Below are positions 1,812-57,728 of a stretch of 64,000 nucleotides of DNA, in pieces; positions within the stretch are counted from its first letter, which is position 1, and each line of letters opens with the position of its first letter. The translations under genes were made by a program, and so were the position numbers. Under the pieces are notes generated by a model. That model was not told where the DNA came from, did no database searches, and saw only the letters and a list, made by a program, of their open reading frames with translations. This stretch comes from a bacterium. GTDB lineage: Bacteria; Zhuqueibacterota; Zhuqueibacteria; Residuimicrobiales; Krinioviventaceae. The stretch is taken from positions 2,176,001 to 2,240,000 of the forward strand of contig OY843751.1 of assembly GCA_963693055.1 (NCBI GenBank). Reading direction: 5' to 3'.

Positions 1812-3239
1812 ATGGGGAATCTGAAGGTGGTAAATATAGATATAAACTTGATTTATCAAATTTATAACCAATATAATTGTATACCTGTAAATACTGATAA
1901 TAATGAATTGGTTCTTGCAAGTTATAAAGAAATCAGTTCGCATGAAATTGAAGAATTGGAATTTCTATTCAATAATTCAATAACAATACAGAATATTTCA
2001 AAAGAACATTATGATTTTCTTTTTACTAATTTCAAATCTCAATCAAATAAAATAAATGATAATAAAAATCAAACTGACCACCTGGCAAATAATAATAAAA
2101 ATGTCATTCAAATTGTTGATGAGTTTATTAATCAGGCTATTGATGAAAAAGCAAGTGATATCCATTTTGAACCCTATGAAACTTTTTTCCGTATTCGATT
2201 TCGCATTGATGGAATTCTCGTTGAAGTAAAAAGAATTTCAAATGATCTAAAAAGTTCTATAATTGCCAGACTGAAAATTATGGCAGAATTAGATATAGCT
2301 GAGAAACGTCGTCCGCAGGATGGTAGAATTCGAATTAAAAAGAATAATCAGGATATTGATATCCGGGTATCAACGCTTCCAACTGATTATGGAGAAAAAA
2401 TTGTTCTTCGAATTCTTGACAAAACAATTGCCAGCTTTGACCTGAATAAAATCGGATTAGAGGAAAAAGAATTAGCCAAAGTTAATGAAGCTATTCAATC
2501 CCCTTTTGGTATTATTCTGGTTACTGGTCCAACTGGCAGTGGAAAGAGTACAACATTGTATTCCATATTAAAAGAATTAAATAATACTGAAAGTAATATT
2601 GTAACGATTGAAGATCCAATCGAATATAATATTGAAGGAATAAACCAATCACATGTACGGCCTGATATTGGATACACATTTTCAAGCGCATTAAAAAGTT
2701 TTCTAAGACAGGATCCTGATGTGATAATGGTTGGTGAGATTCGGGATGCTGAAACCGCTGAAATGGCTGTAAGAGCATCATTAACCGGTCACCTGGTTCT
2801 GAGTACAATTCATACAAATGATGCACCAAGTACAGTAACCCGTTTAATTGATATGGGGGTAGAACCTTATTTAATTTCCGCATCCACAAAGCTGGTAATT
2901 GCTCAACGACTGGTTCGGGTACTTTGTGATAACTGCAAGACAAAAGTCCGAAATTTTGATGATTATAATCTTAAACTTTTTTCTAGTTTAAAAAATATTT
3001 ATGAACCGAAGGGATGTCAGTATTGCCGGAATACAGGATTTAAGGGGAGAAGAGCGGTTTTTGAAATATTTAATATAAATCCGGAAATAGAGCTTTTGAT
3101 AAATAAAACTTCAAACACATCAATAATTCGTAATCATGCAATTGAAAATGGGATGGTCACTTTGCGGAGCCAGGGATTGTCTCTTGTTGAAAACGGAATA
3201 ACGTCAATATCGGAAATATTACGGGAAACCAGTTTGTAA
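1812..3239 (+). CDS. gspE: T2SS/T4P assembly ATPase (GspE/PilB family)
   Basis: ASDIHFEP, LDIAEKRRPQDGR, Walker A GPTGSGKSTT, TIEDPIEY, LRQDPDVIMVGEIRD, CxxC...CxxC. Confidence 0.95.
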   Translation: MGNLKVVNIDINLIYQIYNQYNCIPVNTDNNELVLASYKEISSHEIEELEFLFNNSITIQNISKEHYDFLFTNFKSQSNKINDNKNQTDHLANNNKNVIQIVDEFINQAIDEKASDIHFEPYETFFRIRFRIDGILVEVKRISNDLKSSIIARLKIMAELDIAEKRRPQDGRIRIKKNNQDIDIRVSTLPTDYGEKIVLRILDKTIASFDLNKIGLEEKELAKVNEAIQSPFGIILVTGPTGSGKSTTLYSILKELNNTESNIVTIEDPIEYNIEGINQSHVRPDIGYTFSSALKSFLRQDPDVIMVGEIRDAETAEMAVRASLTGHLVLSTIHTNDAPSTVTRLIDMGVEPYLISASTKLVIAQRLVRVLCDNCKTKVRNFDDYNLKLFSSLKNIYEPKGCQYCRNTGFKGRRAVFEIFNINPEIELLINKTSNTSIIRNHAIENGMVTLRSQGLSLVENGITSISEILRETSL

Positions 3240-3251
3240 GATAGGGATCAA

Positions 3252-5153
3252 ATGAATATCATTTTAAAACTACAACAGGTCGGATTATATCTAATTATAT
3301 TTTCAGTCTTTAATTACAATATTTTTGCTGACTCAATTATCACTAACAATGATGTTGATAATGATAGTACCTTGTCTTTTAATAATGAGCAAATTTCAGT
3401 ATTAGATTTTAAAAATACCGATATTAAAGATGTTTTACGTGCAATTGCCGATACGTATAAATTGAATGTTTTCATCGATGATGCAATTGAATATCGTGTT
3501 TCTATACACCTTGAAAATGTAACAATTGAAAGTGTATTGAATTTTTTAGCTGAGCGTGCTAATCTTAAAATACAGTATGAAGGAAGTATTATAAAGTTCA
3601 TGATGCCACCTCCTAAACCCGTACCACCATTAGCATTATCGTTTCATGATCAAAAATTATCAATTGATATAAAAAATGAACCCATTGCCCGAGTTGTAAA
3701 AGAAATATCTCAGTTATGTGAGACCAATATTGTTCTAAAAAATGGTGTAAATGGTAACGTTTCAGGTTTTCTGCAGAATCTAAGTTTGGCTGAATGTCTT
3801 GAAACCTTTTTTAAAATGAATGGTTATGAACTGGAAAAGAAAAAGAATATTTTTTATGTTGACTGGGGGATAGATTATAATTCTACCGATCCACAGAAAA
3901 AAAGTCGTGGAAGTCGAATTGAAGTGGTTGATGGATTGATCACTATGGATTTTCATAATGTTGCAATTAAAAACGCTGTTCAAGAAATTGCTCAGCAGGT
4001 TGGAACCGATATTATTATTTATGGTCAAATGGAGGGGAATATTTCTGCTAAATGTTCCCATATTACTTTTGACGATGCGTTGAATTATTTGTTCAAGGGG
4101 ACAAAGTTTACATTCCGTAAAGATGGAGATATTTACTTTATTGGCGATAAAACAGTACAGGGGATAAACACGAGTAAACTTATAAAATTGCAGCATTTAA
4201 AAGCGGAAGGCCTCATTGAATCCATTCCAAAAGAAATAATCCAAAATGCGTCAATTATATTAATTAAAGAACATAATGGATTAATGATTACAGGTGCTGA
4301 GAATCTTATTCGGGAAACTGAGGCATATATAAAGCAAATAGATTATCCTATTCCGCAAATTTTAATTGAAGCTTTGGTTGTAGATTACAATATGACTGAC
4401 ATTGATGAATTTAGTCTTGAAGCTGGTCTAGGTAATCCAAATGCTGACGATACAACAGGCGTGTTGAATTATCGTTCTTTATTTCCATCCATTGAGCAAT
4501 CTGCCGATGGAGATTATTTAAATGCGTCCATTGAATTATATGGGCCGCAATGGGGTTTACCCAATGTTGGCAGATTGCCCAGTAACTTTTATTTACAAGT
4601 CAAAGCATTAGAGCAGGAGAGTAAAGCCAAAATCAGATCAAGACCTCAAATAGCTACATTAAATGGTCATACCGCAAGTATTAATATTGGTACGACTCAA
4701 TATTACAAAATAAAAACACAAACACCTTACCAGTCAACCCAGCAACTTTATGTATCTGAATCTGAACGATTTGAAACCATAAAAGCTGAAATGATATTGG
4801 AAATAACTCCGTGGGTTAGTGCATCCGGAGAAATAACTACAGAAATACATCCGGAGTTTAGTACTCCCAAAGGGGCTTTGGATTCGGAAACTCCCCCTAC
4901 TATTGATCATCGTATCCTCAATTCTACTGTGCGTCTAAAAGATGGGGAGACAATCGTATTAGGTGGATTAATACAAGAATCGGATTCAAAAAGTTATGCC
5001 AAGTTTCCCATATTAGGTGATATTCCTTTGATAGGGAGATTGTTTCGAAATCATAGTAACAATAAAACTACCACTGAACTAATGATATATGTAACACCTC
5101 ATTTGTATTATGAAGATTTGGGTAGTGTGAATGTTGATGAAATTATTAAATAA
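3252..5153 (+). CDS. gspD: Secretin (GspD/PilQ family)
   Basis: Repeated STN-like N-domains, QILIEALVVD, RPQIATLNGHTASINIG, STVRLKDGETIVLGGLI, PILGDIPLIGRLF. Confidence 0.93.
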   Translation: MNIILKLQQVGLYLIIFSVFNYNIFADSIITNNDVDNDSTLSFNNEQISVLDFKNTDIKDVLRAIADTYKLNVFIDDAIEYRVSIHLENVTIESVLNFLAERANLKIQYEGSIIKFMMPPPKPVPPLALSFHDQKLSIDIKNEPIARVVKEISQLCETNIVLKNGVNGNVSGFLQNLSLAECLETFFKMNGYELEKKKNIFYVDWGIDYNSTDPQKKSRGSRIEVVDGLITMDFHNVAIKNAVQEIAQQVGTDIIIYGQMEGNISAKCSHITFDDALNYLFKGTKFTFRKDGDIYFIGDKTVQGINTSKLIKLQHLKAEGLIESIPKEIIQNASIILIKEHNGLMITGAENLIRETEAYIKQIDYPIPQILIEALVVDYNMTDIDEFSLEAGLGNPNADDTTGVLNYRSLFPSIEQSADGDYLNASIELYGPQWGLPNVGRLPSNFYLQVKALEQESKAKIRSRPQIATLNGHTASINIGTTQYYKIKTQTPYQSTQQLYVSESERFETIKAEMILEITPWVSASGEITTEIHPEFSTPKGALDSETPPTIDHRILNSTVRLKDGETIVLGGLIQESDSKSYAKFPILGDIPLIGRLFRNHSNNKTTTELMIYVTPHLYYEDLGSVNVDEIIK

Positions 5154-56666: not shown

Positions 56667-56675
56667 GGCAAATTA

Positions 56676-57728
56676 ATGAAAGCGAAAATGATTCTGTTTT
56701 TTATATTGTTTTCAAAGACCATAATGTCTGCTGAAACACCCTGGATGGTTTATATGGAACCCGCGGCAAATGACCAGAAAAGATTAGTAGTTTATGATAT
56801 TGGTAACGATTCATTGGTAACAGATTTTTTTACACAATTATCAGGGTCTTTTCTGGTAATGAAGTTTTTTTCAAACACCGGACTCATTGGTTTTGCATCT
56901 GATAATCATTTATACAAGATTGATATTGAAAACAAAAAAATAGAAAACCTTCCCGAATTAAATAGTTCGGCATTAAATTATGGGCAGGATATATGGATTA
57001 TCTTATATGGTGATATTTTGAACGTGAATGTGCCAGGAAAATCGTTTTCAATGGATTTGAAAAGTATAATCAATCACAAATACCGTGAAATTGTCCGTTT
57101 TGAATGGGTATTGAAAAAAGAGGAAACAGTTTATATTGGCGTGTTGACAATTGATGATAAAAATAAATATCACCGCGTATTGATCAAGAAAACCTTGAAT
57201 GAAATAATATGCTGTAATATTGAAAACAAAACCGGATTATCGTTTTGGGATAGGAGCTGTATTGAAGAAAAGAGTAATCCTTTTAATGATTATGTTGGAT
57301 TAATTTATGTTAATTCAAAAACATTTAAACGGGAATTGGTCTTTTTCGATTTGCGGAAAAATGAGCTCATTCATGCGGCGACAAATGTAGATGATTTTGT
57401 GTGGTTGAATGGTGATTCATTGGCGTTGTATTCGTATAATCGTGATGCAGGAGAATATCAGATTGATATGTTTGATTCTGTGACTAAAGAAAGGACTGAA
57501 TTGTTTCAATATGATCATATTGGCCATAATCAAAATTTGTTTTACTTTGATAATTCTTTATATTTTAAACATTTTTCAAGACACATGGAAATTTTTACAA
57601 AAATTAAATTCAGAAAATATAATGTGTTAACAAATGATGTTACAGATGTTCTTGAATTTAATAAAAGCCGAGATTCCTATTATAACATTTTTGATTGGGA
57701 TATTAGAATTGTGAATCTTGAAGAGTAG
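56676..57728 (+). CDS. Secreted beta-propeller-like protein, putative immunity
   Basis: Signal peptide. Starts 9 bp after the Rhs-CT stop. Confidence 0.55.
   Translation: MKAKMILFFILFSKTIMSAETPWMVYMEPAANDQKRLVVYDIGNDSLVTDFFTQLSGSFLVMKFFSNTGLIGFASDNHLYKIDIENKKIENLPELNSSALNYGQDIWIILYGDILNVNVPGKSFSMDLKSIINHKYREIVRFEWVLKKEETVYIGVLTIDDKNKYHRVLIKKTLNEIICCNIENKTGLSFWDRSCIEEKSNPFNDYVGLIYVNSKTFKRELVFFDLRKNELIHAATNVDDFVWLNGDSLALYSYNRDAGEYQIDMFDSVTKERTELFQYDHIGHNQNLFYFDNSLYFKHFSRHMEIFTKIKFRKYNVLTNDVTDVLEFNKSRDSYYNIFDWDIRIVNLEE

Follow-up and report, generated by a model that had tools for sequence, protein, structure and literature searches.

A pilus-derived machine linked to a three-gene Rhs protein with predicted signal peptides and to variable fibres in Bacteroidota and neighbouring phyla

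A 64,000-nt stretch (hereafter the window) of the complete, 6.5-Mb genome of a Zhuqueibacterota bacterium (assembly GCA_963693055.1, contig OY843751.1, positions 2,176,001 to 2,240,000) encodes a pilus-derived machine, an Rhs protein with the features of a polymorphic toxin, and an array of secreted fibre-like proteins (Table 1). The original prediction had read this arrangement as a candidate new system, in which an operon resembling type II secretion systems (T2SSs) and type IV pili runs into signal-peptide-bearing Rhs genes, faced by 19 secreted paralogs and followed by a tyrosine recombinase remnant and orphan Rhs tip modules. Each of these parts was recovered: the operon with three Rhs genes that each have a predicted signal peptide, 19 minus-strand open reading frames (ORFs) sharing a C-terminal domain, and the remnant with two core-tip modules and their candidate immunity genes. 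The claim of novelty did not hold for the machine, which by gene content and order matches an already known type; what appears to be new here, as judged from the genes, is the linkage of machine and Rhs and the exported cocoon divided over three genes. Signal peptides were called by eye and by a crude hydrophobicity rule.

Table 1 Features of the window, with positions counted from its first nucleotide
Feature	Position	Strand	Evidence or remark
Machine operon, 11 co-oriented genes	1812-12176	+	Pfam and NCBIfam profile matches
Assembly ATPase, PilB/GspE-like (T2SSE)	1812-3239	+	PF00437, E 2.5e-137
Secretin with STN/N0 domains	3252-5153	+	PF00263, PF07660, PF21305
Alignment genes, PilN-like (460 aa), PilO-like (179 aa) and PilP-like (157 aa)	5159-7551	+	PF05137, PF04350, PF04351
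450-aa pilin-like protein and two minor pilins	7561-9844	+	N_methyl matches on two small genes
Platform protein PilC/GspF (T2SSF), major pilin (10998-11426) and A24 prepilin peptidase	9847-12176	+	PF00482, PF07963, PF06750/PF01478
Rhs shell of 1704 aa with a predicted signal peptide and a TcB-like N-terminal part	12410-17524	+	RHS_repeat
Middle piece, 169 aa: signal peptide, small domain without known relative, two YD hairpins	17557-18066	+	Its end resembles the final hairpin conserved in the middle genes of 6 other loci
Core-tip gene, 335 aa, with signal peptide: DPDG-containing Rhs core and a variable tip of 204 aa, a predicted toxin	18081-19088	+	TIGR03696, E 4e-19
Two-helix membrane protein, 89 aa, candidate immunity gene	19150-19419	+	Position; two hydrophobic segments
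19 fibre genes (products of 321-617 aa) with variable shafts and a common C-terminal domain that closes with a coiled coil	19605-49691	-	
Insertion sequence (IS) transposase (rve integrase core) within the array	21424-22230	+	PF13683, PF00665
Palindromic upstream element of the type TTATTTG-N11-CAAATAA, nine copies	23720-50220	-	Upstream of the remnant and of 8 fibre genes
Broken 20th fibre gene, remnant	49880-50140	-	Three-frame translation
Tyrosine recombinase, C-terminal remnant	50743-51045	-	PF00589 (Phage_integrase, E 1.5e-12)
IS3 element, cuts the recombinase remnant	51177-52293		rve, HTH_Tnp_1
Truncated orphan gene, possible immunity protein (from position)	52354-53211	+	59% identical paralog elsewhere in the genome
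Orphan core-tip 1 (interrupted core, in-frame stop at 54497) together with its candidate immunity gene	53845-55360	+	Without signal peptide
Exported candidate immunity gene of orphan 1	54842-55360	+	
Orphan core-tip 2 together with its candidate immunity gene	55634-57728	+	TIGR03696, E 2e-13; without signal peptide
Exported candidate immunity gene of orphan 2	56676-57728	+	

The components of the machine fell short of the canonical families. The ATPase scored under the curated cut-offs of both the GspE and the PilB models, the secretin had PilQ as its top NCBIfam model yet stayed under its cut-off, and the canonical T2SS cut-offs were missed for GspE (550 bits vs 630), GspD (198 vs 351) and GspG (49 vs 89). 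The platform genes matched PilN, PilO and PilP, not the GspC, GspL and GspM of proteobacterial T2SSs. The 450-aa pilin-like gene, whose product would occupy the GspK/PilX position, was kept in related operons together with both minor pilin genes. No PilT was found in the operon or in any machine locus among the loci fetched up to L212, where the single PilT-like match belonged to a separate type IV pilus locus of the window genome (G000:C1:3639945-3655295, L019) that encodes PilB, PilC, a PilT-like ATPase and a pilin. The PilT that accompanies a type IVa pilus system is thus missing from the operon itself and could be used in trans.

In gene content and order the operon matches the 'putative T2SS' of Cytophaga hutchinsonii (chu_3191-3202), and by this comparison the machine itself is not new. 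According to the available part of Wang 2017 (PMC5553014), the same gene set occurs in four other Bacteroidetes; it comprises a secretin, an ATPase, a platform protein, a peptidase, one major and two minor pilins and PilN/O/P-like proteins, with no PilT listed. One of our loci (G227) has the chu gene order, the likeness to Cytophaga being judged by gene content and order. In a quick ATPase tree, with Cytophaga proteins not among the sequences, 47 machine ATPases including those of Bacteroidota formed one set (support 82, not starred), and the pilin profile recovered Bacteroidota operons at E<1e-37. The window genome carries a second complete machine with a three-piece Rhs and without fibres (G000:C1:1519441-1539973; L011, L012). 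This copy includes a sigma-54-type regulator, a 1619-aa shell, a 596-aa middle gene, a core-tip gene and an exported immunity candidate; such a regulator lies between machine and shell in several relatives and is not found in the window.

The Rhs protein is encoded in three pieces. Residues 26-675 of the shell were modelled with a predicted template modelling score (pTM) of 0.79 and a mean predicted local distance difference test (pLDDT) of 70, and the best Foldseek matches of this model were YenB and TcdB2 (E 7.5e-10, at a low template modelling score of about 0.3) and SGS1 (E about 1e-9). The shell profile matched only YenB in the PDB (E 0.11), and the whole shell had no PDB sequence match. 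The FG-GAP propeller that binds TcA was not detected in the shell by a Pfam search or in the model of residues 26-675; the paralogous shell of the same genome carries DUF6443. The two YD hairpins of the middle piece are predicted to fill a gap in the shell. Middle genes of relatives carry about 500 extra residues, partly CBM96-like, and the window gene is short; for its 169-aa product as a whole no homologue was found, which is weak evidence. The 204-aa tip likewise matched no Pfam family and no homologue, again weak evidence. YD/RHS repeats, a core ending in DPxG, variable tips, downstream small genes and orphan modules occur together here, as in Rhs polymorphic toxins.

A short-read contig from the same sample covers positions 17000-18359 without differences, so the two splits of the Rhs gene are not assembly errors. 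The window, its paralogous locus and another five loci share the same break points: the shell runs to the end of a YD strand pair, one hairpin (two in the window) closes the middle gene, and the core gene begins at the strand preceding the conserved DHLG motif. Fully fused Rhs proteins run unbroken through the split region, and middle-core fusions also exist. The three-way split therefore appears to be deliberate and conserved, and the three pieces would complete one cocoon in the periplasm. At one locus (L051), two complete signal-peptide core-tip genes stand in tandem, which suggests that tips may be loadable as separate cartridges.

The linkage of machine and Rhs was strong over several phyla. 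We sampled 167 genomes of the own phylum and 301 of Bacteroidota; all counts across genomes ignore kinship, and relatives are not independent data points. In the own phylum the shell was present in 19 genomes, the pilin in 19 and both in 12, with about 2 expected. A GTDB scan starting from the machine yielded 29 loci, of which 20 were annotated, four repeated own-phylum loci, two were skipped and three, with distant pilins, served as controls. Fifteen of the 20 annotated loci had an Rhs gene, and in three of the five misses the pilin lay at a contig end. The machine's pilin occurred in 33 of the 301 Bacteroidota genomes (about one in nine), including gut Bacteroidales, and an Rhs core was present in 32 of these 33 vs 88 of the 268 pilin-negative genomes. 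An Rhs gene lay within the 20-kb flanks at 26 of 33 Bacteroidota loci (31 genomes) and also in both remaining genomes; counted by genome, Rhs was within 20 kb of the pilin in 26 of 33 (at most 1.4 expected). Five of the seven loci without a nearby Rhs end at a contig edge, and one is an orphan pilin. Among 28 control loci of other pilins a single one carried Rhs, and it reads pilin, platform, fibre, Rhs.

In distant lineages the Rhs genes often lie within the operon, at differing positions, and 27 of the 35 large Rhs genes in machine loci passed the signal-peptide rule. All four plasmid records of cultured strains that matched the pilin have Rhs beside it. Besides Bacteroidota, the machine was found in KSB1-like, Calditrichota, Cloacimonadota and Rhodothermota genomes. 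Several Rhs genes in one operon, or three complete machine-Rhs loci per genome, were also seen (L133-L134 in G267, L137-L138 in G279, L147-L150 and L173-L174 in G298).

The fibre array consists of genes with a conserved end and divergent shafts: the C-terminal domains share a mean identity of 75%, the N-terminal parts a median of 22%, and segments have been swapped and duplicated. All 19 matches to the C-terminal domain in the genome lie in the array. Seventeen genes are intact with a signal peptide, one (42105-43505) has a frameshift inside the signal peptide, and in one (19605-21240) a short duplication near 20870 breaks the gene in two, which may be an assembly slip since it lies in a part (20744-20977) without short-read contig cover. 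The palindromic element does not occur ahead of machine or shell and has one weak match elsewhere in the genome. A monomer model (pLDDT 75.6) was closest to the Bdellovibrio MAT fibres 8ond and 8onc (Foldseek E 7e-4); the monomer comparison gave a modest Z of 7.1 and a root-mean-square deviation of 3.1 over 69 residues, within the range of common arrangements, and a loosened MAT capping-loop motif was present in 15 of the 19 fibres.

The end domain had no PDB sequence match, and PF13884 (S74) was not found in the genome. Compared with four S74 chaperone sequences by hhalign, it gave weak probabilities of 8-31% (P 1e-4 to 5e-3) and occupies the same position after the shaft. The cleavage serine of S74 is replaced by alanine or proline in 140 of 156 family members, and lysine at +5 is present in 8 of 156; with both residues missing, the end domain would not be cut off. 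Low-scoring fibre matches in relatives, considered as S74 proteins, proved to be of the same non-cleaving family. The family comprises 37,318 clusters at 50% identity and has no Pfam name. A phage origin of the array was rejected, with no match in 50,697 phage records; ten loci in IMG/VR hold the family, several beside exported, Rhs or type IX secretion system (T9SS) tail genes, and by these matches it is essentially a cellular family. An integron cassette array was also rejected, as the repeat precedes only 8 of 19 genes and lies upstream, several genes overlap and the recombinase is a remnant. Three database proteins (P0008, P0011, P0013) carry three tandem end domains behind fn3-like, leucine-rich-repeat-like or LamG-like regions, as assigned by eye; such a single-chain pseudo-trimer suggests a docking or sorting module.

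Fibre genes recur in or next to machine-Rhs loci in five phyla. In Cloacimonadota they are placed within the operon, between PilC and PilB, and two genomes have all three of their fibre genes inside operons. In Calditrichota and in G140 they lie between machine and Rhs, the own phylum likewise has them in or next to the operon, and they stand immediately before shell genes in G140, G165, G158, L098, G266 and G402. Seven of the 33 Bacteroidota machine loci have fibres, and an eighth has them just outside; at L097 a true S74 fibre adjoins the machine. Fibres were present in 14 of 33 pilin-positive vs 36 of 268 pilin-negative Bacteroidota genomes, and Rhs in 40 of 50 fibre-positive vs 80 of the remaining 251. 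In 26 pilin-negative genomes with both fibre and Rhs, distances taken from match positions put a fibre and an Rhs core no more than 20 kb apart in eight genomes (17 of 59 fibres). A plasmid of cultured Persicobacter (CP012864.1) carries the machine, two Rhs pairs and 18 fibre genes; in a quick tree the window fibres fell into two groups of their own (support 99 and 98), from which all Persicobacter fibres were absent, so the fibre library arose twice. At L193, L196, L200 and L201 a fibre gene is followed by an exported gene of about 260 aa and often by a T9SS-tail gene, an arrangement that may give these fibres another means of export.

Co-occurrence of the three modules, fixed beforehand as the test of the original prediction, was found, with a very strong machine-Rhs association and recurrent fibres; the part that came out looser was the fibre link. 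Machine and Rhs are far more closely linked to each other than the fibres are to either of them, and the fibres are an optional partner with more than one setting.

The region beyond the array holds the orphan tips. The in-frame stop of orphan core-tip 1 is borne out by contigs, and a 204-nt repeat in orphan 2 is 93% identical to orphan 1. One and the same brief interruption occurs in both orphan cores at the same core site (53890-53930 and 55680-55715), and orphan cores elsewhere in the genome are interrupted in a comparable way. The orphan tips look like silent recombination donors, because they have no signal peptides and their cores are interrupted. The truncated gene at 52354-53211 matched no Pfam family. 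More orphan core-tip and immunity-like clusters lie far from any shell (G000:C1:5148409-5159339, L014; near 1118594; near 362827). The rest of the window (58579-63770) holds unrelated genes, encoding an SDH-family Clp-fold protein, a LuxR-type response regulator, a baeRF3 protein and an OmpA protein with TSP3 repeats. Directly upstream of the machine (G000:C1:2160906-2170486, L016) we noted by eye type I restriction-modification-like genes and IS elements, which suggest a defence or mobile island.

Other export routes were searched for in the same genome. The original prediction had found no type VI secretion system (T6SS), VgrG or PAAR in the window, and this extended to the whole genome, in which VipB, VgrG and PAAR gave no match while controls did; the window Rhs pieces bear signal peptides and do not have the features of T6SS-delivered Rhs proteins. 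A genome search for TcA (PF18276) was blank, with no positive control matched. The absence of T9SS sorting tails stood for the window, where no ORF carries one, and for the 35 large Rhs genes of machine loci (0 of 35); it did not extend to the genome, which encodes the T9SS pore SprA and at least 150 tail matches. Among 51 machine-bearing genomes checked, SprA was present in 44. All seven SprA-negative genomes belong to gut Bacteroidales and have Rhs genes on the flanks of the machine, and six of them also gave no VgrG match. As closely related assemblies whose completeness is not stated, they support a machine route without proving it.

Parts of this arrangement have precedents. Denise 2019 (PMC6668835), in its available part, placed the Bacteroidetes system among type IVa pili (T4aP), suggested a possible new secretion system and reported no systematically associated neighbours for the types modelled. 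The available text of Wang 2017 does not mention Rhs, and neither of the two texts joins Rhs to the machine. A literature search, with subscription papers and supplements such as the neighbourhood table S5 of PMC6668835 outside its scope, returned no paper that joins Rhs to this machine. Zhang 2012 (PMC3482391) described signal-peptide Rhs toxins in 'T2SS/Sec-dependent' and 'TcdB/TcaC' classes, which in the available text have no neighbourhood signature gene and come with no mention of a secretin. They share with the window the signal peptide, RHS repeats, variable tip, immunity gene and orphan cassettes; what sets the window apart is the linkage to a dedicated machine and a cocoon spread over three genes with predicted signal peptides. 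Forms with SpvB and FG-GAP, of the type described by Zhang, adjoin this machine in gut Bacteroidales. The available part of Song 2021 (PMC7861908) mentions neither signal peptides nor T2SS.

The Tc B-C cocoons (YenB/YenC2, TcdB2-TccC3) likewise have a shell and a core-tip on separate genes, and the N-terminal model of our shell is TcB-like. Here, in contrast, all pieces have signal peptides, no FG-GAP propeller was detected, the split is much nearer the core and no TcA match was obtained in a search that lacked a matching control. Tc release proceeds by lysis through a type 10 secretion system (T10SS), according to the available text of PMC10847048. The MAT fibres of Bdellovibrio, defined by Caulton 2024 (PMC10769870, available in part), resemble the window fibres in their signal peptide, mosaic shafts and about 20 paralogs per genome. 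The window fibres are much shorter, have a conserved C-terminus rather than a 130-aa N-terminal domain, are without the SDxxxK motif and, unlike MAT fibres, are clustered beside a secretion machine and Rhs.

The concept of a variable warhead combined with variable target-binding parts is reportedly realised in the umbrella toxin particles of Streptomyces, whose binding is said to have been shown experimentally. Those particles are reportedly built from unrelated proteins in a Gram-positive host.

We consider it likely, with a probability of roughly 0.6, that the machine exports the Rhs toxin cocoon and that the fibres are accessory adhesive cargo of the same machine, since it lies recurrently beside Rhs and fibre genes. 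Shell, middle piece and core-tip would each cross the inner membrane via Sec, given their predicted signal peptides. In the periplasm they would probably join by strand completion into one TcB/TcC-like cocoon; the pieces break at conserved points, and fused versions also occur. By analogy with the Rhs family, the core DPDG motif would free the tip inside the cocoon. A non-retracting pseudopilus would then push the folded cocoon through the secretin, as the gene linkage suggests; the small downstream gene would protect the producer, and recombination would exchange the tip for an orphan one. The fibres are predicted to form trimers, their S74-like end domain would remain attached, and they would vary what the cell or particle sticks to.

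Several points weigh against this explanation. All of the supporting evidence is gene linkage, and a cocoon may approach the size limit of a secretin. None of the three window tips matches a known toxin family. Rhs cores in 88 of 268 pilin-negative Bacteroidota genomes indicate that Rhs does not depend on this pilin family, and SprA is encoded by the window genome and by most machine-bearing genomes. Cytophaga mutants of the corresponding system were defective on cellulose with hardly changed extracellular profiles, according to the available text of PMC5553014. For the fibres, co-regulation with machine and shell through the palindrome was rejected, the element being absent before both. The paralogous machine-Rhs locus of the same genome has no fibres, nor have 26 of the 33 Bacteroidota loci as first fetched, and in the own phylum most single fibres are unlinked to machine or Rhs. 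The pilin is missing from 36 of 50 fibre-positive genomes, in which several fibres adjoin T9SS-tail genes; 42 of the 59 fibres of the pilin-negative set have no Rhs core close by, and neither Rhs nor machine genes accompanied the fibres at any of 16 pilin-negative loci fetched, four of which held T9SS-tail genes. Because the fibre link is looser and many fibres stand beside T9SS cargo genes, the interchangeable aiming role that the original prediction gave them is put forward as a hypothesis.

That the fibres go further and dock on the cocoon, their trimers attaching through the conserved end domain and replacing TcA in a modular particle of one shell with many fibres and tips, is possible, if doubtful, and compatible with export by the machine. 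It would fit with the undetected FG-GAP propeller and the blank TcA search, which had no matching control, with the fibre genes directly before shell genes in six genomes or loci, and with the fibre-Rhs proximity and the Rhs enrichment of fibre-positive genomes given above. The database proteins with a triple end domain behind unrelated domains are as expected of a docking module, and the window middle piece is without the domain set of about 500 aa of its relatives. Against docking, most Rhs-machine loci have no fibre, the majority of pilin-negative-set fibres lie away from an Rhs core, and no conserved adaptor was identified.

An unlikely explanation, which departs from export by the machine solely in the final place of the cargo, is that the machine makes a surface pilus or display structure with the fibres as tip adhesins and Rhs surface-bound for contact-dependent delivery. 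The PilN/O/P-like components, the placement among T4aP in the available text of PMC6668835 and the Cloacimonadota fibre genes between PilC and PilB speak for it; it is opposed by the machine loci among those fetched up to L212, none of which has PilT, the genome's own PilT lying in a separate pilus locus. Improbably, the genes may merely share mobile islands, with Rhs and fibres leaving through the T9SS by riding tagged partners, in vesicles or by lysis. A T9SS is present in the genome, the locus has IS elements and a recombinase remnant at its flanks, plasmids carry several copies, and a genome of the same genus (G001) had no fibre, shell or pilin matches; yet Rhs genes are inserted in the operon at differing positions in distant lineages, and the linkage holds in SprA-negative genomes and is missing from generic pilin loci. 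Very improbable is that the Rhs proteins are adhesins or carriers, teneurin-like or carbohydrate-binding, as the CBM96, CBM_4_9, PKD and fn3 domains in related pieces and the cellulose defect of Cytophaga mutants (PMC5553014, available part) might suggest, since the loci show variable tips after DPDG, each followed by its own small gene, and arrays of orphan tips, features that usually mark polymorphic toxins according to the available text of PMC3482391.

Export of the cocoon by the machine, if true, gives signal-peptide Rhs proteins a route across the outer membrane without T6SS or T9SS, and puts forward candidate substrates for a secretion system that a 2019 study marked as perhaps new. A wider and tentative proposal is that the Bacteroidetes-type 'T2SS' would be a dedicated exporter, in Bacteroidota and neighbour phyla, of Rhs cocoons built in the periplasm, with exchangeable trimeric fibres and signal-peptide toxin cartridges, so that target and warhead would both be variable, unlike in T6SS, contact-dependent growth inhibition (CDI) and Tc. 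The analysis ties a very large unannotated fibre family to a candidate function, and the presence of the whole system in cultured strains makes the idea directly testable. Cultured non-pathogens with the locus include Persicobacter sp. JZB09 (CP012864.1 and CP012857.1) and Pontibacter sp. G13 (NZ_CP134698.1). With the machine in 33 of 301 sampled Bacteroidota genomes, a widespread way of competing among bacteria may have gone unnoticed.

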